Source of the DNA: a virus
Taxonomy: Duplodnaviria; Heunggongvirae; Uroviricota; Caudoviricetes
Length of the DNA stretch: 64,000 nt
Strand: one strand, 5' to 3'
IMG/VR virus record: IMGVR_UViG_3300022468_000286
Shown here: positions 3,323 through 51,070 of the stretch, one piece after another
Layout: every line of letters starts with the position of its first letter
How positions within the stretch are numbered: position 1 is the first letter of the stretch
Position numbers and translations under genes: made by a program
Notes under the pieces: generated by a model
Told to the model about the DNA's origin: nothing
The model's database searches: none
What the model saw: only the letters and a program-made list of their open reading frames with translations

Positions 3323-3727
3323 ATGCTAGACCTTAAAGTAACAAATCTTGCAGAATCTGCCGAAGCTGGCTACGAATTTGAACTCCTACTGCCCGAGTCT
3401 ATGGAAAAGACCGGGGGCTTTATTAAAGTGCGTGGCCGTATGTCCGCACCTGTACGTAATCACGCAAAGCGTAAGTACACAGAATACACCCAACGTGAAA
3501 TGCAAGCCAAGCGTAAGGGTAAAGAACTTGAAGCGATGACCATTGATGAAGCTGAAGACGCTGCAGTAGAAAACGCAATCGTGCGTATTATTAGCTGGCG
3601 TGGTATCGGTAAGGATGGCGTTGAGATTCCTTTCAATAAGGAAAATGCTGATACAGTCCTGCGCGAACATACTTGGATTCGTGACGCAGTGATGGAGGAA
3701 TCAGATAATCTGCTGAACTTTCAATGA
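3323..3727 (+). CDS. Tail assembly chaperone (gpG-like)
   Basis: 134 aa acidic protein immediately upstream of the tape measure gene. The downstream frame is open and overlaps the end of this ORF. Confidence 0.5.
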   Translation: MLDLKVTNLAESAEAGYEFELLLPESMEKTGGFIKVRGRMSAPVRNHAKRKYTEYTQREMQAKRKGKELEAMTIDEAEDAAVENAIVRIISWRGIGKDGVEIPFNKENADTVLREHTWIRDAVMEESDNLLNFQ

Positions 3728-4186: not shown

Positions 4187-7100
4187 ATGCTTAATCTAAG
4201 CGAATTAGCTTTTACAGTTCGGACTGAAGCCCTTGTAGATGCGGCTAATAAAGTAGCGGCTCTTGGGGAGTCCGTAGAGAACCTTGCAGGTTCATTCCAG
4301 AAACTAGAAAAGGCATCTTCAGATGCTGAGAAAACACAATCGCGAAATGCTAAGGCTGCAGCACAAGCTGTAGAAGCTCAAGCTAAGCCAAATAAGGCTC
4401 TAAGTGAAGCTGAATCTGCTGCGCTTAAAACAACCTCTGAACGTACTGATGCTGAAACTAAGAAGGTTAAAGCTCTAAAGGCAACGACACAAGCTGTAGA
4501 TGAAAGTACAGAAAGCGCCAAGAAGAGTTTAAGTATCCTTGAGCGCCAACAAACCATTCTAGAATTCCAAGCTAATGGTTACTCTAAAGGGCAATCCTCA
4601 ATTCTTGCATATGCTAAAGCTGCCGGTGTAGCTTCGGATGAAATTCAAGAAATCGGCAGAGTTCTACAAGCACAGAGAACTCTCATGGGAGGTGATCCGT
4701 TTGATAAAAGTCTAGGAAGCCTTCGCTCACTCCAGAACGAATTTAAATCTCTGAAAGAAGTACAACGTCTTTACACTGCAGAAATACCTTTAACTAGAAA
4801 GCAGATGGAAAATCTGGCTCTCGATAAGATTCGCCTTATCGAAGCTATGAAGATCGAGGGCAAGTCGATGACTGACATTAAAAACGCCATCCGTCAACTT
4901 AATGTAGAGTATATCACAACTGCCGGTAGTATTAATAAAATGATTCAAGCTGAGAACGCAATTGATGCTGCTCATAAAGATGCAGCTAAAGCGGCCTCGT
5001 ACCTTGAACGTGAAATGCAACGTGTAAACTTTGCCCTTCAAGAACAGAACAATGAACTGAACAAAGGTACTGCTAATGCTCTTAATCGTTTTGAACAAAA
5101 CCTGAAGCGTAGTGGACTTACCCTTGATCAGCAAAGAGTAAAGATGGATGAATATCGCAAATCTTTACTTGCTCTGGAAAAGACTAAAGGCGGTGGGAAT
5201 ACGGATTATATTAGTCGTGCCCTTGGTCCACAGATTACTGATATTTTCGTTGGTCTTGCTACAGGACAAAGCCCGTTGACAGTTATGCTTCAACAAGGTG
5301 GTCAACTGCGAGATCAGTTTGCTCTTGCTGGTGTTGCTGCTGCTGATATGGGTGCTACCATGCGTACTGCTGCTAGGGAGATGGTAACATCTGTAGCCGC
5401 TGTTGCTGGTGCCTTTAAGGATTTAATTGTAGGCGCCTTCATTGATACAGGCAAGGGTCTTGTGAACATGGTTGTTCAGTTTACAGGGCTGGCTAATGTA
5501 ATTGAAAAGGCAAGATATCAATTAACTCTGTTTGCAATGTCAGACCCATCTTTTGGTAAACCCCTGCTCGCTTTCTTTGCTGCACTTCGTGTGGCTGTGA
5601 TTGGTTTTGCAGCTACTATGGCCGCTACAGGTATTGGGGCGCTTATAGCTATGGCGGTTGCTATCAAGCAAGTTATCTCTGAAAATAATACTCTAGCGCG
5701 CTCTCTAGCTCTGTCTGGTGGAAGTCTAGCATTAACTCATAGTTCTGCTGTGCAGTTTGTAGAGACACTTTCAAGCATGGGAGTTACAACTGGCGTTGCT
5801 ACTGAAGCTCTGGCTGCAATGGCTAAGGCTGGCGGTTTCACAAGAGATGAAATTCTTATGGTAGGCAAGGCCGCTGCCGAGATGTCTACATATGCTGGCG
5901 TTTCGGTAGAAGATACAGTTAAAGCCTTTGATAAGCTCAAAGATAAGCCTGTAGAAGCCCTTATAGATATTGCCAAATCAACTGGTATGGTTTCTATTGA
6001 AACTATTAAGATGGTTGCTGAATTGCAAAAGGCAGGAAAGACGACAGAAGCTGCTGCGCTGGCTATGAAGACATATGCGGACGTTACTAAAACTCAAGTA
6101 CAGCAAATGAAGGATAACTATAATGGTTTTTCTTTGTTCATGATTAACTTGGGCAAGGGAATTAAGAACTTCTTCTCTGAGACTTTCAAAGTTCTTTTCT
6201 TAGCTAGTGATCCAACTAAGGAACTAGAAAAGCAACTTAGGAATACTCAAACACTGATTAACCAGTATAAAGGCGCTGCCACTTATACCCCTGAGGGTGC
6301 CACTGGAAGACAGGTAAAAATACTGGAAGAGCGTGCTAGAATGATCTCCAGCGAAATTAGCTCACAAGTGAGGCTGAATACTGAAAAAGAGAAACAACTT
6401 CAGCAGCAATCAGAAGAGGCCAAAAACTTTGGAATCGTTTCTGATGTTATGAAAGGTGTTAGCGGCGTGCTTGATAAGCAAATCGAGAAGACTCTTTCAC
6501 TGACAGATTACACTAAAAAGTACATCGCAGAGAAAACAAAAGAAGGCAAGTTCTCAAAAGAACAGCTTGCTAATATTGAAAAAGCCGCAAAGATTGAATG
6601 GGAAGGTCTGCAAAAGAAATCAAGCAATAAAGCTGATCCTCAAGAGAAGTATTTCGAGAGCCTAATGCGTAGTCTAACAAATGAAACAATCAAGGCTACA
6701 ACAGAACAGGACAAGTTAACCAAAGCATATACCAAGATGCTTGAATTAGCTGCCGACCCTCGATTCCAGAAACTTTCTGAACAAGAGAAAGCTAAAGCAT
6801 TTGACCTGCTAAACCAAGCTCATAACGCTGAACTAGCAACTGCTGCTACTGAACGTCAGACCGCAGCCGAAGAACTTAGGAATAAAGTTCTAGGTAAGGC
6901 AGAAGGACTTGGGAAGGAATATTACGATACTCTTGCGAAGATTCAACAGTACAATAAAGACGGTGTGTACTCTGATTCAGAAGTTATTCAACTGACTGAA
7001 GCATTATATAGAGCCACTCCTGCCTATAAAGCAAATATCAAAGCTGTTGAAGAGCTTAACGGCCTTCTTTTGAAATACAAAGAAGCAGCTATGGCAAGCT

Positions 7101-20185: not shown

Positions 20186-20995
20186 GCCAATTTCAACACC
20201 TTTATTTGTTACTCTGCTTTCGCAGGGTCAAGTCATTTCTGCTTGACTCTATATATCACTATATAGAACAGACTATATCATCACCCATTTCTGGGGTTTA
20301 TCGTCCGAGCTTATAACTAAAACTTGGCAGGGTGTATTCACCAATAAGAGCATCGAATTTCTCAACATCCCTAGCACGAAGCCTGAGATACCAATAATTG
20401 TTTTGACGGTTAATATTGAATTCAAGACCAAGCTTTTCTTTAATAGCTTGTTTCAGTAATAGATTATCTCCATAACTGAATCCCTTAGTATTCAATGTAA
20501 TGTTTGGTTTAGCATCTGGGGAGCGTTGATCTTGCACCCTACTACCATCTGCCATAAAAATAATTGCTAATGCTTCTGCATCCATAAGGGTAAGCATATG
20601 CGGGTCAATTACTTTCTTACCGTCAATATAAATTCGATTTCTAATTGTTGTTAATTTTGGATGATTTTTAGAACGTAGTGTAATCTGTGGCTTTCTGTTA
20701 AAACCATCGTCAGTTAATTTACGGTCTGAAATTGAACATCCAATCCCTGCCTCTACCAGAGTATCACGTACTTTTTCAACGTAATCGCTATTCTCTTTTT
20801 TCATATTCATGGTAAATGAAGCGTTGGTAGAATTCGCAACTAAGTATAAACCACCATCAAAGGTAGAAAAATAGTATAGTCGCTTAGTTAGTTCTTTACT
20901 CATAGTCGTTGCACCTTCCATATCGGATTGGCACAGGATTATCTCACTGAGACTTCCCCTGTTTTTAGATAAATTATTCATAAGACCTTACGATC
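20186..20995 (-). mobile_element. Group I-type intron with embedded LAGLIDADG HEG interrupting the RNR gene (boundaries approximate)
   Basis: The RNR reading frame is broken by stops on both sides of a free-standing 227-aa HEG ORF with its own RBS. An in-frame intein is excluded. Confidence 0.5.
20298..20981 (-). CDS. LAGLIDADG homing endonuclease (two motifs)
   Basis: The motifs are YYFSTFDGGLYLV and AIIFMADGS, about 100 aa apart. Confidence 0.6.
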   Translation of the reverse strand: MNNLSKNRGSLSEIILCQSDMEGATTMSKELTKRLYYFSTFDGGLYLVANSTNASFTMNMKKENSDYVEKVRDTLVEAGIGCSISDRKLTDDGFNRKPQITLRSKNHPKLTTIRNRIYIDGKKVIDPHMLTLMDAEALAIIFMADGSRVQDQRSPDAKPNITLNTKGFSYGDNLLLKQAIKEKLGLEFNINRQNNYWYLRLRARDVEKFDALIGEYTLPSFSYKLGR

Positions 20996-22006
20996 TTAGG
21001 CCGCTAGTTTTAACGGATTATAGCAGAACTCTTTATTATCAGTAAAGATAAAGCCGGGCTCACCGAAATCCTTCACAGATTTCATAATGTCTCGCCATTC
21101 ATCTCGCGTCAGTTCGTCACGGATAAGCATCACAGAGTTATTGCTGCGACCACGTTGAGGGTTCTTGGCAAACCAGTTACCAGTTTTTGCCTTCAGCATA
21201 TCCTGATCATCTTTATCGAACAGACAGATGGTAGCACTGCGACGTACACCACCAGACAAAACAGCGTCAGACATATGCATAACAAAATCATATGCAACGA
21301 TTGTAGGAATCTTGACTGCTACCTTACTATTTACCACGAGGTCTTGTAAAAGCTTTTCACACTTCACAAGGGATTCACGCAGACCATCAGGGCCGGGAGC
21401 CTTGAAACCTCCAGAAATCATCGCACCTTTTGGTCGAATCAAGCTATAATCAAAGTGAACCTGCACGCCTTGATATTCTGGGAAAGTAGCACCTTCAGTC
21501 AAATAGCTTGAAATAAGTACACCATAAGCATCAGCCCAACCCTCGATAGTGTCAGGTACGGTAAATACCTTTACTCGTTTTTCACTACGTTTCTGAATAC
21601 TTGGGATTTTATTTACATGATGTTTTTGAACTGAGAATCCTACACCGCAACCGCACAGCAGTAGGTACATTGCTTCTTGAAAGAAGGCTGGACGATCACA
21701 ATGCGAAACCGAACAATTATACATTCTAGCATTATGCTTGAATAGTTGTTCACCGCCGAATTGCAAAGCACGTTGTGCACCAAGTACAAGCTTTTCCTTA
21801 TAGGCTTCTTCTGCGTAATCAATAGCTGCAGCCAGAGCAGGAGTCATTTTATCTTTATACTTTTCCCGGTGCATGTTCATCACACGCTGTACAGATTCTA
21901 CCCATGATTCATAACGCTTATCTTCTTCAACCCACCGTGAATAGCCCATATAGAACTTAGATTGAGCCATCATGTCTTTTGTATTTTGTTCAGCTTTAAT
22001 TGTCAT
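20996..22006 (-). CDS. Ribonucleotide reductase large subunit, 5' exon (N-terminal half, no ATP cone)
   Basis: 336 aa ending ...GEPGFIFTDNKEFCYNP, just before the conserved catalytic NxCxE region. A stop follows, then the HEG. Confidence 0.6.
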   Translation of the reverse strand: MTIKAEQNTKDMMAQSKFYMGYSRWVEEDKRYESWVESVQRVMNMHREKYKDKMTPALAAAIDYAEEAYKEKLVLGAQRALQFGGEQLFKHNARMYNCSVSHCDRPAFFQEAMYLLLCGCGVGFSVQKHHVNKIPSIQKRSEKRVKVFTVPDTIEGWADAYGVLISSYLTEGATFPEYQGVQVHFDYSLIRPKGAMISGGFKAPGPDGLRESLVKCEKLLQDLVVNSKVAVKIPTIVAYDFVMHMSDAVLSGGVRRSATICLFDKDDQDMLKAKTGNWFAKNPQRGRSNNSVMLIRDELTRDEWRDIMKSVKDFGEPGFIFTDNKEFCYNPLKLAA

Positions 22007-24153: not shown

Positions 24154-24687
24154 TTAACCCCCTTTTGCTTGCTTTAGTATATTGATTGTCAGTAAAGTTT
24201 CCGCCTTAACTTTATCATCTGACCATGACACTAAATCGTTCAACGAAATTTTACCATGCATAAATGCCCAAAGGGTTGCATTTCCAAATTGCTTATGGAG
24301 CCATACATGATCTGCCAGTTTTAAGACTGCTAAGTTGTCTGGAGAATTATTCAGAACATCACAATCTCTGTGATGCACATGATGTCCTTTAGGTATTGAC
24401 TCTAGTTGAAGAATTTCACACGCTACTGCGATATGTAGTTTAATCTTCTTCTTTGAGAGTAATAAGCTCGTTTGCGGACTGAAAATCTGATAACCATCAC
24501 AATCAAAATTTCTATTCTTGTTGTTTGGATTCTTGGTCCCTAGATATGCATTACTTTTAAAGATCGCACTGCACGTAACAGAACAGAAGAAACCAAGGGT
24601 GCGTTTCTCTTTTCTCCGCGAGGGCTTGAGGTAGAAACTTCTACTACACTGCGCGCAGGTCGTATTATTTTCAATATGCTTTTCCAT
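24154..24687 (-). CDS. HNH homing endonuclease
   Basis: There is an N-terminal Zn-finger CAQCSRSF...CSVTC. The HNH core is HHVHHRDCDVLNNSPDNLAVLKLADHVWLH. Confidence 0.6.
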   Translation of the reverse strand: MEKHIENNTTCAQCSRSFYLKPSRRKEKRTLGFFCSVTCSAIFKSNAYLGTKNPNNKNRNFDCDGYQIFSPQTSLLLSKKKIKLHIAVACEILQLESIPKGHHVHHRDCDVLNNSPDNLAVLKLADHVWLHKQFGNATLWAFMHGKISLNDLVSWSDDKVKAETLLTINILKQAKGG

Positions 24688-29239: not shown

Positions 29240-29315
29240 TGGCGCGTCTGGAGGGATTCGAACCCCCGACAAGTGATGTAGAAGATCACGGCTCTATCCA
29301 CTGAGCTACAGACGC
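29240..29315 (-). tRNA. tRNA-Arg (anticodon UCU)
   Basis: 76-nt cloverleaf read by hand. It has the acceptor stem GCGTCTG/CAGACGC, D-stem GCTC/GAGC, anticodon loop CU-UCU-AC, T-loop GGTTCGAATCC, discriminator G and an encoded CCA. Confidence 0.8.
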
Positions 29316-36228: not shown

Positions 36229-36516
36229 TTATTCCTCGTACACGTCGTCGTATACAATTCGGTAGCTTGGCTCTTTAATACTGTAAGAGGTTGGGTACAC
36301 CCTAACGTTACCTGTGTGACTAGAATCCCCAGCGGTACACGCCACGGGACCACCTTCACTCAACCACCAGATTTGCTGATTCGCATTTACCCAGCCATCA
36401 CGGACCTTGTACAGAACTCCGTTACTCTCTTTTCGCTTTTGAAGGTACTCTTCCAAAGACTTAATATCGTCCGTGGAGAGTTGTTCAATTTTACTAATAA
36501 CTTCAGTCAGGGACAT
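36229..36516 (-). CDS. Hypothetical protein
   Basis: 95 aa. Confidence 0.3.
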   Translation of the reverse strand: MSLTEVISKIEQLSTDDIKSLEEYLQKRKESNGVLYKVRDGWVNANQQIWWLSEGGPVACTAGDSSHTGNVRVYPTSYSIKEPSYRIVYDDVYEE

Positions 36517-36531
36517 TGTAACTCCTTTCTA

Positions 36532-36618
36532 TGGTGCAACAGGTGAGATTCGAACTCACGGTGGGATTTCTCCACTGGCTTATGAGGCCAGAGCCTGCAA
36601 CCGCACGGCGTCTGTTGC
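36532..36618 (-). tRNA. Type II (long variable arm) tRNA with anticodon CAU and discriminator A
   Basis: 87 nt read by hand. It has the acceptor GCAACAG/CTGTTGC, a 3-bp D-stem, anticodon stem CTGGC/GCCAG with loop CU-CAU-AA, a ~15-nt variable arm, T-arm GTGAG-TTCGAAT-CTCAC and an encoded ACCA. Position 8 is A. Confidence 0.6.
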
Positions 36619-36659
36619 ATGTGTGTATTGTATGACAGCACCTAAGCACTGTCAAGACA

Positions 36660-38825: not shown

Positions 38826-39398
38826 TTAAGTTTTAAAACTCATCAGTGCATCATACGCTCTAGAATCTAGTTGAGACTTGTATTGTTCAGCAAGAAGCCT
38901 CAATTTCGCAAGTTTAGCTTTAGTGTAAATCTTAAGACAATCTTCCAGTGTGCCGATATGTAGATGGCCTGATTTTCTTTTCCCATTTACAACAGTCGAA
39001 AGCTGTGCCACATATTTACCGTTAGATTTCTTAAAATATACCCCGTGCGGAAGATTTCCGTTTGTCGTTCGGCAGTCTGAAATCAGAGTATTAATTTCGT
39101 TAGGTAGAAAACAGCAAGACATTTCTGAGTATAGCTTACCACAACCCAGTAGGTCTTTATCTAACTGCCAGTTTGGAACAAAGTTTTTCAAATACCATTT
39201 TCTGAAATTTGAATGCAGCAGCCAATCATTTCTGACATGACATCCTTCATAACTTGGCTTCTTTTCTTGATATAACTTGCTATAACATCTTCGAATCATG
39301 CTGTGCCAAACAGCATAAGAGTCTAAGCTTGAACTTAGATCATTAATGCCTTTACCAAAAATCATTAAAATTCTCCTACACCATTGTCTCGCAACCAT
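38826..39398 (-). CDS. Free-standing homing endonuclease (HNH-like N-terminus + AP2 DNA-binding domain)
   Basis: The AP2 domain is GVYFKKSNGKYVAQLSTVVNGKRKSGHLHIGTLEDCLKIY. It is inserted between the polymerase and primase-helicase genes. Confidence 0.5.
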   Translation of the reverse strand: MVARQWCRRILMIFGKGINDLSSSLDSYAVWHSMIRRCYSKLYQEKKPSYEGCHVRNDWLLHSNFRKWYLKNFVPNWQLDKDLLGCGKLYSEMSCCFLPNEINTLISDCRTTNGNLPHGVYFKKSNGKYVAQLSTVVNGKRKSGHLHIGTLEDCLKIYTKAKLAKLRLLAEQYKSQLDSRAYDALMSFKT

Positions 39399-42052: not shown

Positions 42053-43123
42053 TCACTCCAGATTGCTCATAAAGAATTCGCGGGCTTTCTTAGAGATCGC
42101 TCCGTTTACATCCTTTGGCTCAATACCTGATGCGATCATGGTAGAAAGCTCTTCCTTGAGGATATCACCTACAACCCAGCGCAGGTAGTCGCCAGTGCTT
42201 CGAACACTGTGTTCTAGGCCCATCTCTGTAAGCTTATCAAGCCCTTGCTTCAGACGGTTTTCAGTACAAGCGTAATCCACGAACTCTTGAACACTCTTAA
42301 CCTTTTCCTCGTCCACTGGAGCAATAGTCTTTACCTTACTAGCACTGTGCTTCTCACCTTTAACCTTGAAGCGAAGATCGCACAGGGTAGTATATAGTTC
42401 CTGTGAAATATCTGGATTATCATCAAGGTTTACTTCGGGCGATACAGACCAAAAAATACCTTCACCAATAAGCTCTCGGGCTTCATCTGGGCCAAGTAGT
42501 TGTCGTGCTACTGGGCAGTCCTTCTCTACACTTTCAGTCAGTGCAACCAGTTGATTTTGCACCAGTGTTGGAGTATCGAAATCAATCTCTACACTATACG
42601 TAGGAAAGTTATGCGAGAAATAAATATTATCAGGACGGCCCCTCTCATCAAAGAAAGATTCCCAACTGCGAGTGGAATGCCATTCCTTCCCTTCTGCATC
42701 TTCACTGAAGCGAATAGCAAAGACTACAAACATCTTTGGAAGATAGGACAGGCCAACACCCTTTTGGATATTACCACCGCACCATTCACCGTAGATTTGA
42801 ACGCACTCTCCGTCCTTGAGGATACCTCCAGAAAGGTCAATAGCTACATTATCCCAGTATTCCTTGTTACCGTATACCCAAGCAGCAAAGCCAGCGTTGT
42901 CGCTCTCAGGAGTGATGATACGTTCACGGCTTTGGCACCACCATTCACCTTTTTGGTTAATTACAACGGCAGCATTAGTGCCGTGCAGCTTTACAGTACC
43001 CTGCAGGCGAACTTTAGGTACAGGCACATTGTGGTACTTAGCTGTAGATTGCACTTGCTTAATAGCATCGCGGAACTGCCCGGTGCTTGGAAACTTAATG
43101 AAGGTATTCTTTTGAACTTGCAT
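42053..43123 (-). CDS. RNA ligase (Rnl2-like)
   Basis: Motif I is VKLHGTNAAV (T4 Rnl2 has KIHGTN). The size of 356 aa is compatible, and later motifs are EWCGGNIQ and ...KVKGEKHSASK. Confidence 0.55.
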   Translation of the reverse strand: MQVQKNTFIKFPSTGQFRDAIKQVQSTAKYHNVPVPKVRLQGTVKLHGTNAAVVINQKGEWWCQSRERIITPESDNAGFAAWVYGNKEYWDNVAIDLSGGILKDGECVQIYGEWCGGNIQKGVGLSYLPKMFVVFAIRFSEDAEGKEWHSTRSWESFFDERGRPDNIYFSHNFPTYSVEIDFDTPTLVQNQLVALTESVEKDCPVARQLLGPDEARELIGEGIFWSVSPEVNLDDNPDISQELYTTLCDLRFKVKGEKHSASKVKTIAPVDEEKVKSVQEFVDYACTENRLKQGLDKLTEMGLEHSVRSTGDYLRWVVGDILKEELSTMIASGIEPKDVNGAISKKAREFFMSNLE

Positions 43124-43415: not shown

Positions 43416-43877
43416 TTACAACACCCAGCAGGTTTTCTTTACTTGATTCTGTGGGTCACAGTCATTGATGATGGCTTCGATTATATCCCAATCTCCACCA
43501 CCAAGTCCAGCACCAATCTTAGGGAAATGAACTTCTAGGTCAGTTGCCTTTGCCTGACGGAAAACTTCCGTGAAGGCTTTGGCAATGGCTGCATAGTTAA
43601 CATGCCTCCGATCCGTACCGAAATACTCTTGAGTAATTGCATTAGCAATAAAAAGGTTCTTGGAAAAGTCAATACAAAATTCAGGATTAAACCAAACAAC
43701 GCTTCCAAGCGGAAGAGTTTCTTCTTCATAAACCCGGCGATATTCAAGGAAGCATTCAAAGTACTTATTCTTGATTGCAAGTGCTACACCTGAACCCATG
43801 ACACCCTGAGCATTGCAGCCATGCACGATGATGCCAACTTTTACGTCAAGAAGATTGCCGCGTTTATATTCAATCAT
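43416..43877 (-). CDS. Macro-domain protein (ADP-ribose / Appr-1''-p binding or processing)
   Basis: The motifs are GIIVHGCNAQGVMGSGVALAIK and KIGAGLGGGDW. Confidence 0.65.
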   Translation of the reverse strand: MIEYKRGNLLDVKVGIIVHGCNAQGVMGSGVALAIKNKYFECFLEYRRVYEEETLPLGSVVWFNPEFCIDFSKNLFIANAITQEYFGTDRRHVNYAAIAKAFTEVFRQAKATDLEVHFPKIGAGLGGGDWDIIEAIINDCDPQNQVKKTCWVL

Positions 43878-47730: not shown

Positions 47731-49155
47731 TTACACACTGGCGTTAGCACGTACTTGATCAAAGGTCATAGAGTTCAGCACCTGACCGTTGAGGTAACGG
47801 CAGATGAGAGCCCCGTCAGAGGTATCTTCACGAGTCAGAAGGTTATCCGTCACGTACTCACCGTCATTGCCCCGGAAGAGCCACACAAGGCCCTTCTTGG
47901 ATACCTTGCCCTTATCGGTAACTGGGTCTTTGAACACGTCACGCCAATCAACAGAAGCAAAGAATCCTTCGTCTGAATCAAGCTTTTCGTTATTACCGAC
48001 AGCACTGCACTTCATGGCGTACTTCTGGTCATCCCGTGTAACAGCTTGCAGCAATGCACCGCCTTGGCCGAAGGCGAGCATATCAGCAGAGTACCCGTAA
48101 ATGTCCACAGCAGTACGCAGGATGGTTTCAATGGTGAGCTTAGTAATACCGTCGCCCCAGATCATGCGAACGTTATTCAGAACCTTGTAGCCCTTATCGT
48201 TCGTCACATATCCGAAGTATTGTTCAAGGATTCGCAAGCATGTAGGTACGACCAAAGCAGGATCGCCGCTATCAGGACGGACAACAAGAGTAGCACAGCT
48301 TGCCTTGATTTCCTCTGCAAGTTCACCCCACATATGGCATGCCTTGTAGATATCATACGAATCAGATACGCATGCAAAGATAGCACCGGGCTTGGCAAAT
48401 TTCTTAATCATATTGCGGTAAGCATCCTTTTCACCGTCACGACCCCAAGAGGTAATCGTGCTGTGTTCGCTCGCGCCGATACTGAAAATAACAGGCTCGG
48501 TAGCGTCGTAATACTTAGCAGCAAACAGTTGACCAGTCATAGTGTCAGAGCCCATGAAATTTACGGCATGCGACAGAGAGCCAAGACCAGCAGTTTCAAA
48601 GCTAGAAGCACCACGAGCGCCAAAGTCATGCAGCTTGAAATCCAGACCAGAAACATCTCCGGACTTTTCAAGGTAGCTTTTGATTACCTTCTTGATTTCC
48701 CGAGAGTTAGTAGCGACAGTAGAAGTGTACCATGCAGCGCGAAGGAGAGCAGTTTCAATCCAAGTAGTTGCGAATGGAAATTCAGGGTCAGTATTGACAA
48801 CCACAGCAAGAACATTCTTTGTCTTGACAACAGAGCCATCTGGTACTGCAAATACAGCCACAGGCCAATAACCGTTGTACTTCTTGAACATCTTACGGAT
48901 TTGTTCTTCAGGGAATACACTACCGAAAGCAGGCCAAGTCTTCACTGCAAAGTCAATATCTTCTTCAGTGAAGGGCTTAGACAGATATTCACGGATGAAA
49001 GGCTGGACAAGTCCTGCGACCACTTCATCATAAATCCCACCGCGAGATTCAATGTAAGAGTAAACGTATTGCACATCTTCAGGGTATTGGGCAAACATGC
49101 CTACCTTGTAAGAGTCCGTGTTGAGAAGAATGGATTGTGTGTTGAAATTAGTCAT
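47731..49155 (-). CDS. nadV: Nicotinamide phosphoribosyltransferase (NAMPT/NadV)
   Basis: 474 aa type II PRTase with NAMPT-family organisation and DFGARGASS. Confidence 0.8.
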   Translation of the reverse strand: MTNFNTQSILLNTDSYKVGMFAQYPEDVQYVYSYIESRGGIYDEVVAGLVQPFIREYLSKPFTEEDIDFAVKTWPAFGSVFPEEQIRKMFKKYNGYWPVAVFAVPDGSVVKTKNVLAVVVNTDPEFPFATTWIETALLRAAWYTSTVATNSREIKKVIKSYLEKSGDVSGLDFKLHDFGARGASSFETAGLGSLSHAVNFMGSDTMTGQLFAAKYYDATEPVIFSIGASEHSTITSWGRDGEKDAYRNMIKKFAKPGAIFACVSDSYDIYKACHMWGELAEEIKASCATLVVRPDSGDPALVVPTCLRILEQYFGYVTNDKGYKVLNNVRMIWGDGITKLTIETILRTAVDIYGYSADMLAFGQGGALLQAVTRDDQKYAMKCSAVGNNEKLDSDEGFFASVDWRDVFKDPVTDKGKVSKKGLVWLFRGNDGEYVTDNLLTREDTSDGALICRYLNGQVLNSMTFDQVRANASV

Positions 49156-49165
49156 AGTAAGCTCC

Positions 49166-50194
49166 TTACTTTGGGTTGATAATGAAAGAGTTATAAAAAG
49201 CAGGCAAGGGTTTTGTCTGCGTCATCACCTGAATTATATCAGAATGATCGTCATGCAGTCTATAAGTATTTACTGCATCTGAGATAGGAACCCACTTGCA
49301 CTCTGCTGCGTCGTCAGCACCATTTGCTCTTGGCAACTTACCGTCAGCATCTGGTGCGATCTTGAAGTGTACCACAAAAGTGCTGCGAGGAATACCTGAG
49401 CCGCGTGTAGGGCTATCAAAAAGTTTAGTATTTACGATTGAACCTACCAGAACTTTCTCAGGAACACGAAGATTGGTTTCCTCGAAAGCCTCGCGGATGG
49501 CGCATTCTGTAAAAGTTTCAGTATTATTCTTGAATCCTCCCGGAAGAGCCCAAGTATTACGCCCCGGTGCGTACTTCCGACGAATCAGTAGAATATGTCC
49601 ATTGCATTCAATCAGAGCGTCTGAGCAGACAAAGTTCAAAGTCTCCGGATATGGGTAGTCCTTGAAACGATGATTTTCATTAATGAAATACTTGAAGTCC
49701 TCTACAACATCCTCTGGAAGTGCAAGTCCACTGTGTTCTTTTTGATTAACGAACATGCTCCATCGAATAGTAGTTGCATTGATATTACTTGAGCTTTCGA
49801 TATTATGAAAGCCATATTGCGGGAACCACTTCAGATAATCATTACCCTCTTTATCAAACCCAAAGAGAATCCTCTTGCCGAATGATTTATGCATATTGAC
49901 GATCTCTTGTACATCAAGAATCCACTGAGTATCACTGTACTTATAGTCATTCACAGGGATTACCTGAGCGTCTTCAAAATCCAGACCATTCTTATCTAGA
50001 AAAGCCTGAATCAGTTCCTTGCGCTCGGAGTAAGTCCAAGGGTTTTTGATTGTTCGTGCTACGTTAGCACTACCTACGACGATTAGAAGCTTGTCGCAGA
50101 GCTTCTTAGCCTTCAGGATAATCTCCTTGTGTCCTTCGTGCAGAGGTTGGAATCGACCAATAATGATTCCGAGAGTCTTTGTTTTTTCTTGCAT
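49166..50194 (-). CDS. Bifunctional NMN adenylyltransferase / Nudix hydrolase (NadM-Nudix type)
   Basis: The N-terminal GIIIGRFQPLHEGH nucleotidyltransferase motif is present. The Nudix box is LPGGFKNNTETFTECAIREAFEETNL. Confidence 0.8.
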   Translation of the reverse strand: MQEKTKTLGIIIGRFQPLHEGHKEIILKAKKLCDKLLIVVGSANVARTIKNPWTYSERKELIQAFLDKNGLDFEDAQVIPVNDYKYSDTQWILDVQEIVNMHKSFGKRILFGFDKEGNDYLKWFPQYGFHNIESSSNINATTIRWSMFVNQKEHSGLALPEDVVEDFKYFINENHRFKDYPYPETLNFVCSDALIECNGHILLIRRKYAPGRNTWALPGGFKNNTETFTECAIREAFEETNLRVPEKVLVGSIVNTKLFDSPTRGSGIPRSTFVVHFKIAPDADGKLPRANGADDAAECKWVPISDAVNTYRLHDDHSDIIQVMTQTKPLPAFYNSFIINPK

Positions 50195-50617: not shown

Positions 50618-51070
50618 TCAAAGTTTAACCGAAAACCTGTTACGCTGGCGCTGAAGTACAGCATCGGGAACATCATGTACTGACATTGTATCATTACGAT
50701 TCTCAATAATCAAGGACACAAAGTTAGCATTGTATTCTTTTGCAATATCTTGACACACCTTCACTTCCGCTTCGGTAGTGCTGGTGTTAGACACTACGAC
50801 ATTCATACCGTATTTCAGGGCCAAGCCTGTCGTGGCTTGGCACCAAGAATGCGCCTGATGCAGCTTTGATCGGTCAAACGTATAAACTCCGTCATTCATG
50901 AAGTACATATCTGTTTCAATATGCCAAGCACCAATAGCATCGGCAAAAGCCTTAGCAAAGGTACTCTTACCTGCTCCGCTAACGCCGCGAACAAGATAAA
51001 GAGTAGATTTAGTTTTATCAAGCATTGATTTTCTCCTTTTGACTGATCTTGTTGGCAGTAATGACATCAA
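50618..51070 (-). CDS. Polynucleotide 5'-kinase-like P-loop kinase (T4 Pnk kinase-domain-like)
   Basis: The Walker A is GVSGAGKST. The DMYF, VVVSNTST and HDVPDAVLQRQRNRF motifs occur in the same order as the T4 Pnk kinase domain. It is kinase-only, 150 aa. Confidence 0.5.
   Translation of the reverse strand: MMSLLPTRSVKRRKSMLDKTKSTLYLVRGVSGAGKSTFAKAFADAIGAWHIETDMYFMNDGVYTFDRSKLHQAHSWCQATTGLALKYGMNVVVSNTSTTEAEVKVCQDIAKEYNANFVSLIIENRNDTMSVHDVPDAVLQRQRNRFSVKL

Follow-up and report, generated by a model that had tools for sequence, protein, structure and literature searches.

The tRNA gene and its fold

The 64,000-nucleotide (nt) stretch of viral DNA analysed here (IMG/VR record IMGVR_UViG_3300022468_000286; hereafter the window) encodes on its minus strand a transfer RNA (tRNA) that combines the anticodon CAU with the long variable arm of class II tRNAs. 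Judging by its sequence and by those of its homologues, it is authentic as an elongator tRNA, is probably expressed, and forms with those homologues a conserved family borne by mobile elements. Textbooks allow long-arm tRNAs in bacteria only for leucine, serine, tyrosine and selenocysteine, and treat the U8:A14 pair as nearly universal; the family described below breaks both rules.

A long-variable-arm CAU tRNA had been proposed at 36532-36618 from the letters of the window, with no strand given (the original prediction). It is confirmed both by ARAGORN, which calls there an 87-nt tRNA-Met(cat) on the minus strand, and by the Rfam tRNA model RF00005, which matches 36535-36618 of the same strand with 46.1 bits (gathering score 29, E=1.2e-6). 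The 5' half of the molecule reads GCAACAG-A-C-GCC-GUGCGGUUGCA-GGC-U-CUGGC-CUCAUAA-GCCAG and the 3' half U-GGA-GAAA-UCC-CACC-GUGAG-UUCGAAU-CUCAC-CUGUUGC-A-CCA; the cloverleaf, G18G19, the T loop, U33 and the above-threshold Rfam score place it in the tRNA class. The fold proposed by hand (7-bp acceptor stem, 3-bp D stem, anticodon loop CU-CAU-AA, 15-nt variable arm, canonical T arm) holds in every part, and the minimum-free-energy structure is the same cloverleaf (-33.2 kcal/mol, z = -3.2 versus shuffles). A class II tRNA is defined by a variable region that reaches 10 nt or more and folds into a separate stem-loop; here the region measures 15 nt and its three stem pairs covary. The predicted A73, encoded CCA and A8 are all present; what had been missed is that A8 is accompanied by U14 and C21, these three replacing the usual U8, A14 and A21. 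The molecule is not an initiator tRNA-fMet, for G1-C72 is paired (no 1:72 mismatch) and the anticodon stem CUGGC/GCCAG does not have the three consecutive G-C pairs at 29-31 with 39-41. The parts of the gene are as follows, R1 being a family covariance model introduced below.

36532..36618, minus strand: class II tRNA gene, anticodon CAU, CCA encoded (ARAGORN; Rfam; R1, 109.9 bits; covariation in 12 homologues)
36582..36584, minus strand: anticodon CAU (ATG on the plus strand) in the loop CUCAUAA, the same in 16/16 family copies
36560..36574, minus strand: variable arm U-GGA-GAAA-UCC-CACC, with a 3-bp stem, a GNRA loop and a 4-nt 3' tail ending in C48
36593..36609, minus strand: D arm GCC-GUGCGGUUGCA-GGC, Ser-like except for U14 and C21 (closest canonical match, tRNA-Ser)
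36611, minus strand: A8, just before the D arm
36535, minus strand: discriminator A73, the same throughout the family

Selection on this structure is apparent from an alignment of 12 homologues (11 distinct sequences) covering five helices and 23 pairs. Standard pairing is found in 253/253 helix cells, and compensatory double changes occur at 17 of the 23 pairs (acceptor stem 6/7, anticodon stem 4/5, T stem 3/5, variable stem 3/3, and one pair of the D stem). None of 500 shuffles matches the observed percentage paired or the covariation score, and sliding the 3' partners by 1-3 columns lowers pairing to 29-48%. Invariant in the 12 sequences are A8, C11-G15, G18, G19, U20, G20b-C21-A22 through G24, the entire anticodon loop, C48, most of the T loop, and A73. 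Such a pattern indicates that the family tRNA is a functional, L-shaped tRNA under selection and not a pseudogene. The register of the variable stem is backed by the longer stems of three other members (L144, L149 and L137; L-numbers are labels of the contigs or loci compared) and by a full strand swap in some Cupriavidus members, where GGA/UCC becomes UCC/GGA. ARAGORN's other register, in which U44 pairs with A, was rejected because C44 in other members would mispair.

A8 and U14 are most simply read as the 8:14 tertiary pair retained in swapped form. Among 733 distinct phage tRNAs collected from fetched viral and metagenome loci, with positions assigned by simple indexing and no structural check, about 2.7% have A8 together with U14, in Gly, Lys, Pro, Thr, Trp and other isotypes; by this count the swapped pair appears as a recurrent minority state in phage tRNAs.

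A family carried by mobile elements

Sixteen gene copies share one body, made of A8, U14, C21, a Ser-like D arm, a short variable hairpin followed by CRYC, and A73; CAU, A73 and CCA are found in all 16. Two scans of IMG/VR by the D-arm signature, with the anticodon left free, returned CAU tRNAs only (2/2 and 7/7 hits). R1, a covariance model built from the first seven sequences, gives those seven 101-110 bits and the best non-member 69.7. The comparison with canonical tRNAs, which had been proposed as a check, puts tRNA-Ser closest, at 69.3 bits under R1 against the family's own range. The genome and metagenome collections were scanned with one pattern tied to the window's anticodon stem, hence the true distribution of the family is under-sampled. 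By megablast and blastn the tRNA of the locus has no homologue among INPHARED phages, the sole hit being a Ralstonia tRNA-Ser (UGA); in IMG/VR the exact 26-mer spanning variable arm and anticodon had no match, and the D-arm 17-mer, also searched exactly, matched by chance alone, at places that hold no tRNA.

A copy with the same acceptor stem stands in L141, a syntenic relative; rIIA, rIIB and an 81% orthologue of a window protein lie downstream of it, and L141 proteins match those of the window at 39-81% identity. Five further phage-like contigs of 35-46% GC (L144, L149, L137, L150 and L151) each hold a family member, and several of them have primase-helicase, Band-7 and further genes in common with the window (27-57% identity). 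In L161/L168 a 43.8-kb provirus begins or ends with the intact gene, and at its opposite end the 3' half of the gene occurs again beside a tyrosine integrase; this is an attachment site. Four more GC-rich loci (L176-L179) each have an integrase adjoining the gene, so that an integrase neighbours the family gene in 5/5 cases from GC-rich genomes, one of them with the duplicated 3' half. Finally, the gene is present on Cupriavidus megaplasmids, namely C. necator H16 pHG1 (194007-194094) and plasmids of C. taiwanensis, C. pinatubonensis and C. oxalaticus. The family is conserved and borne by mobile elements: related lytic phages, Cupriavidus megaplasmids, and loci on chromosomes or plasmids used as integration sites by temperate elements. 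It spans phages of 35-46% GC and Burkholderiales replicons of about 60% GC, always with CAU.

Two observations concern particular members. In several Cupriavidus plasmids the class II CAU tRNA lies about 0.2-2 kb from a replication-initiator gene or near the record origin, and may belong to the plasmid backbone. The positions are:

L172: 3002-3089
L173: 3001-3088
NZ_AP025173.1: 1692-1781
NZ_CP062805.1: 1219-1308

L137 (=L138), a 4167-nt contig whose only tRNAs are a tRNA-Arg(UCU) and the class II CAU tRNA, is binned in a metagenome-assembled genome named 'Candidatus Dojkabacteria'; AGA makes up 64% of its Arg codons, and the contig may come from a phage and not from the host.

The window itself is a tailed-phage genome that encodes a tape-measure protein, rIIA, a primase-helicase, a family A DNA polymerase, NAMPT, an NMNAT/NUDIX protein, an RNA ligase and homing endonucleases. 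Its nearest isolate is Pseudomonas phage vB_PsaM_M1 (Ounavirinae, from seawater), at 64% identity in the DNA polymerase. The CAU tRNA starts 41 nt past the polymerase stop codon, a place where the polymerase-based relatives (vB_PsaM_M1, L002-L006) have no tRNA; vB_PsaM_M1 carries tRNA-Pro, tRNA-Asn and tRNA-Thr only. Three neighbouring features bear on its expression and use:

36627..36655, minus strand: predicted sigma-70-like promoter TTGACA-17-TACAAT (promoter scan, 11/12 consensus matches), its -10 element ending 8 nt before tRNA +1
36229..36516, minus strand: open reading frame (ORF) of 95 aa, with an AAAGGAG ribosome-binding site that begins 4 nt after the tRNA CCA
29240..29315, minus strand: tRNA-Arg(UCU), the only other tRNA of the window (ARAGORN; Rfam, 65.4 bits)

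The predicted promoter, being so close, implies almost no 5' leader on the tRNA. At the other end the ribosome-binding site and ATG of the 95-aa ORF follow directly after CCA (36516-36531), and the two are probably co-transcribed in a tRNA-mRNA arrangement. The ORF has no PHROG match and is not conserved in relatives.

Amino-acid identity and the codon read

That class II bodies are limited to Leu, Ser and Tyr was a premise of the original prediction, and in phages it fails. In the tRNA arrays of fetched viral contigs and of isolates, class II-like tRNAs (82-94 nt) whose anticodons specify Asn, Lys, Thr, Cys, Ile or Asp are common; examples are the tRNA-Asn of the phiKZ-like phage OMKO1 and the tRNA-Lys of Xanthomonas phage X1, which GenBank annotates simply by anticodon. 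A class I copy of the same isoacceptor is often found in the same array. Their discriminators track the anticodon (Asn G73 7/9, Cys U73 3/3, Lys A73 3/3, CAU A73 12/13). Given such siblings with class I anticodons, the argument from a class II body to Leu, Ser or Tyr is invalid for phage tRNAs. Many of them follow the family's variable-arm plan, Y-(3-5 bp stem, GNRA loop)-CRYC, and those of the OMKO1 and X1 type also have its 3-bp D stem and often G-C21-A22; unlike the CAU family, which has A8:U14 and occurs in bacterial replicons as well, they combine Asn, Lys, Thr or Cys anticodons with U8:A14. Some carry the identical hairpin GGAGAAAUCC; conservation of that very sequence was discounted, since the scan demanded it and other members show compensated variants. 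The Asn/Lys/Thr/Cys set is apparently undescribed. A search of the full-text literature retrieved nothing that describes a CAU, Met or Ile2 tRNA of class II or with a long variable arm, nor phage long-arm Asn or Lys tRNAs, which does not by itself prove novelty; a lead to a Schlafen 'type II tRNA' turned out to be a citation and no more. Examples of sibling positions are given here, the last three lines being drawn from L153-L169:

L053: 885-973 and 4573-4661
L072: 4496-4580
L174: 136-222
L175: 136-217
L154: 1352-1438 and 5808-5892
L164: 738-821
L169: 1804-1891

The same prediction proposed that an A73 body of this kind might be charged with leucine or tyrosine. Leucyl-tRNA synthetase (LeuRS) of E. 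coli and Aquifex relies on A73 with A15-U48, G18G19 and A20a, U8:A14 being crucial for the Aquifex enzyme; tyrosyl-tRNA synthetase (TyrRS) on A73 and, critically, U35; for seryl-tRNA synthetase (SerRS) G1-C72 and G2-C71 are conserved, G73 matters in vivo, and C2-G71 is a reported antideterminant (PMC9976931). The family shares A73 with tRNA-Leu, yet has G15-C48, U or C at 20a, and A8:U14. Of the tRNA-Tyr set (G34, U35, A73) only A73 matches, the anticodon being C34 A35 U36. Instead of the G73, G1-C72 and G2-C71 of tRNA-Ser, the window tRNA has A73 and C2-G71, and pair 2:71 varies within the family (C-G, U-A, G-C). Likeness to bacterial Ser, Tyr and Leu tRNAs is found elsewhere: in the 3-bp D stem with G13/A22, the GYGGUUG-type D loop, G15-C48, the variable-arm hairpin (often with a GNRA loop), and A73, as in Tyr and Leu. 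The D arm of E. coli tRNA-Ser differs from that of the window tRNA at positions 14 and 21 only. Unlike these bacterial tRNAs, the family has CAU, the A8:U14/C21 core, a variable stem of only 3-5 bp and a 4-nt CRYC tail; in the comparison with tRNA-Ser the D arm is Ser-like and the variable stem just 3 bp with a 4-nt 3' tail. Since the tRNA does not follow the identity rules for Leu, Tyr and Ser, the class II body would not direct those amino acids; and since the Met/Ile elements, the CAU loop and A73, are present, these would direct Met, or Ile once C34 is lysidinylated. On the best reading, then, the anticodon loop and A73 decide which amino acid is attached, and the class II body does not. 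Of the earlier proposal, decoding of AUG, or of AUA if C34 is modified, survives as the likely function, while non-canonical charging by LeuRS or TyrRS falls with the identity rules.

By the anticodon rules the tRNA is, with good confidence, either a tRNA-Ile2 or a tRNA-Met. Methionyl-tRNA synthetase (MetRS) is dominated by CAU and A73, to the extent that a tRNA-Val given CAU is charged as efficiently as native tRNA-Met, and isoleucyl-tRNA synthetase (IleRS) reads a modified position 34, A35, U36, N6-threonylcarbamoyladenosine at 37 (t6A37), A38 and A73 (PMC9976931). With C32, U33, A37, A38, A73 and CAU, the family fits both sets. Elongator tRNA-Met is matched in CAU, C32, U33, A37, A73 and the paired G1-C72 that sets it apart from an initiator. 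The window tRNA departs from it in being class II, in D and variable arms that resemble tRNA-Ser or tRNA-Tyr, and in the acceptor pairs, where U4:A69 and A5:U68 are replaced by A4:U69 and C5:G68; U4:A69 of the E. coli Met set is found in no family member. tRNA-Ile2, the AUA reader with lysidine at 34, is matched in the CAU of the gene, the loop CUCAUAA, A37, A38 and A73, and in the occurrence on AT-richer mobile DNA with a tRNA-Arg(UCU). Known tRNA-Ile2 molecules belong to class I; their variable loop measures 4-5 nt, their D stem has 4 bp, and they keep U8:A14, as opposed to the 15-nt arm, 3-bp D stem and A8:U14/C21 core of the window tRNA.

The choice between the two leans towards Ile2, and a tRNA-Ile2-type reader of AUA is tentatively preferred here. 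A case in point concerns lysidine formation: TilS of Burkholderia cenocepacia requires C4:G69, C5:G68 and G3:C70, and the tRNA-Met of that species has C3:G70 (PMC12514573). The Cupriavidus-type members, with acceptor stem GGGCCGG, have all three TilS pairs, and L144 and L149 have C4:G69 and C5:G68. Cupriavidus and B. cenocepacia belong to the same order. The tRNA-Ile2 of B. cenocepacia, with its 11-nt D loop, was considered as a class II case and rejected, as the chimeras of that paper involve no variable arm (PMC12514573). Along with these pairs and the absence of U4:A69, the lean rests on company and codon use. A tRNA-Arg(UCU) accompanies the family member in 3 of the 6 loci with at most three tRNAs, compared with 0/52 ordinary phage CAU-tRNA loci of that size, at a distance of 8 nt in L150, 133 nt in L137 and 7 kb in the window; it reads AGA, the other classic rare A-ending codon. 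L150 has on the same contig (614-688) a second CAU tRNA of class I, with the T loop AUCGAAA, whose A54 and A60 are the pattern of eukaryotic initiator tRNAs. In L137, AUA makes up 59% of Ile codons; in the window it occurs at 6.4-7.3 per 1000 codons, and AGA accounts for 20% of Arg codons.

Several points weigh against the Ile2 assignment. The window's own acceptor stem (A3:U70, A4:U69, C5:G68) has just one of the three TilS pairs, which were defined for the B. cenocepacia and E. coli enzymes. Also missing are U12-A23, C29-G41 and G16, minor determinants of E. coli IleRS; the near-identical Cupriavidus sequences count as one lineage, and the tRNA-Arg(UCU) loci include related phages and are not independent. 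Contigs bearing the tRNA show no clear AUA excess over relatives without it, and AUA use in the window (11-12% of Ile codons) is no higher than in such relatives. Neither a TilS nor an aminoacyl-tRNA synthetase nor any further enzyme of tRNA modification turned up among the window ORFs of at least 150 aa and four small ORFs beside the tRNA, where the search yielded only an RNA ligase and an AAA_33 kinase-like protein.

Were the Ile2 assignment right, the gene would be transcribed from the adjacent predicted promoter together with the 95-aa ORF, and the transcript processed to an L-shaped tRNA whose core keeps the 8:14 pair in swapped form (A8:U14, C21). Host TilS would turn C34 into lysidine, A37 would become t6A, and IleRS would charge the product, which would then read the rare codon AUA alongside the tRNA-Arg(UCU) reading AGA. 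A host TilS that rejects the tRNA would leave it to MetRS, and AUG would be read. Ordinary AUA or AUG decoding on an unusual scaffold, with no rewriting of the code, is most likely.

A long-armed elongator tRNA-Met, charged by MetRS through CAU and A73, with C34 unmodified or acetylated and AUG read, is possible, if somewhat doubtful; it could provide extra Met supply or replace a host tRNA-Met lost to a defence nuclease. It would draw on the dominant MetRS determinants, for which anticodon transplants suffice (PMC9976931), and it is the default outcome for any CAU tRNA that TilS does not modify. It also fits the ARAGORN label, the lack of C4:G69 and G3:C70 in the window stem, and an AUA use that is unremarkable relative to relatives. 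On the other hand, both acceptor Met pairs are missing from the family, except for A5:U68 in L137, the Cupriavidus members have the full TilS set, and the benefit of one more tRNA-Met to a GC-rich megaplasmid is hard to see; Ile2 accounts better for the company of tRNA-Arg(UCU) and for the additional CAU tRNA of class I in L150. Much further from expectation, and quite improbable, is that the class II body draws LeuRS, TyrRS or SerRS, so that AUG or AUA would be read as Leu, Tyr or Ser by recoding or programmed mistranslation. LeuRS and SerRS ignore the anticodon, A73 is common to Leu and Tyr, and the D arm is nearest tRNA-Ser, as the sole phage-record BLAST hit and the best canonical R1 score have it. 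Nematode V-arm tRNAs (nev-tRNAs), which are eukaryotic and charged with Leu, are one precedent for recoding through a long variable arm with an anticodon foreign to Leu, Ser and Tyr. Allo-tRNAs are another; they accept Ser, their acceptor/T stems measure 8/4 or 9/3, and most of them end in G73 or U73 (Mukai et al. 2017, PMC5389517). The window tRNA, unlike both, has a 7/5 configuration backed by covariation, A73, and no Ser or Leu determinants. Recoding is further opposed by the Leu core replaced at every point, by A35 where TyrRS needs U35, by the Ser antideterminant and the variable stem unlike that of tRNA-Ser, and by the siblings, whose discriminators follow the anticodon. Proteome-wide replacement of Met or Ile would damage the phage itself, and the window ORFs and codon usage inspected show no sign of recoding.

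A role outside or beyond translation is unlikely, be it against tRNA-targeting defence nucleases (as a decoy, or as a substitute that resists them), as a regulatory RNA, or chiefly as an attachment (att) sequence. That phages use tRNAs to counter anticodon nucleases is known (papers on the subject include PMC10264068, PMC11464382 and PMC11555353). The window has an RNA ligase, the AAA_33 kinase-like protein and NAD-salvage enzymes; the integrases and the duplicated 3' half in GC-rich genomes, and the proximity to replication-initiator genes in some Cupriavidus plasmids, could be read in the same sense. Yet the features needed for translation are strictly kept (7/5 stems, G18G19, T loop, U33, A37, A73, CCA, an invariant anticodon), functional tRNA genes normally double as att sites, which a lytic phage does not need. 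No defence system targeting CAU elongator tRNAs was identified in this analysis, and nothing points to the decoy or regulatory role raised by the original prediction, which has a low probability. Lowest of all is the chance of a decaying pseudogene or a fortuitous tRNA-like sequence, suggested by the Rfam score (46 bits, below the 65 bits of the neighbouring tRNA-Arg) and the non-canonical A8; perfect stem pairing in 12 homologues with many compensatory changes effectively refutes it, and the tertiary nucleotides and CCA are invariant, with a near-consensus promoter just upstream. Pseudogene status had been named beforehand as grounds for abandoning the proposal, as had a different anticodon, which ARAGORN did not return. 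One may also imagine that the class II body and the A8:U14/C21 core form a functional device, serving non-cognate (Ser, Leu) or dual charging, marking the tRNA for a dedicated partner, or allowing escape from defence. This too is improbable; if true, the tRNA that phages and megaplasmids carry would decode AUG/AUA privately or act off the ribosome, and self would be told from host tRNAs by a handle, the Y-stem-GNRA-stem-CRYC module that recurs on phage tRNAs for Asn, Lys, Thr, Cys and Met.

The family offers a natural test of how MetRS, TilS and IleRS handle a class II body with a swapped 8:14 pair, and a candidate route by which mobile elements may supply AUA decoding in foreign hosts. C. necator H16, which holds pHG1, is genetically tractable, and the question is thereby directly testable. 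Annotation pipelines, for their part, will call such genes 'tRNA-Met' or flag them as anomalous.

Other long-arm tRNAs and minor observations

A second, unrelated group of long CAU tRNAs came to light, with initiator-like acceptor stems (CGCGGGG/UGCGGGG), class I D arms and an insertion of 13-20 nt in the variable region:

L041 (=L139): 3391-3476
L102: 2151-2236
L105: 1234-1326
L140: 1151-1231
L145: 3579-3667
L146: 86-169
L153: 4473-4557

In L160 (1771-1861 and 4500-4587) a 91-nt long-arm tRNA with anticodon CUA, of the amber-suppressor type, lies about 2.6 kb from a CAU tRNA; the latter has the same GGAGAAAUCC variable arm with canonical U8/A14 and a 4-bp D stem. Downstream of the family member of L151 there is a T-arm-like fragment, GGGTCGCAGGTTCAAGTCCTGC (5419-5478, 60 nt), which ARAGORN does not call.

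As to the rest of the window, it encodes an RNA ligase (42053-43123), an AAA_33 kinase-like protein (50618-51070), a Macro-domain protein (43416-43877), NAMPT (47731-49155) and a fused NMNAT/NUDIX protein (49166-50194), a set that suggests RNA repair and NAD+ salvage, possibly in counter-defence. Homing endonuclease genes of the LAGLIDADG and HNH types are scattered among the replication genes (20298-20981, 20996-22006, 24154-24687, 38826-39398); the LAGLIDADG gene adjoins a fragment-sized ribonucleotide reductase ORF, and one HNH gene sits between the primase-helicase and the DNA polymerase.

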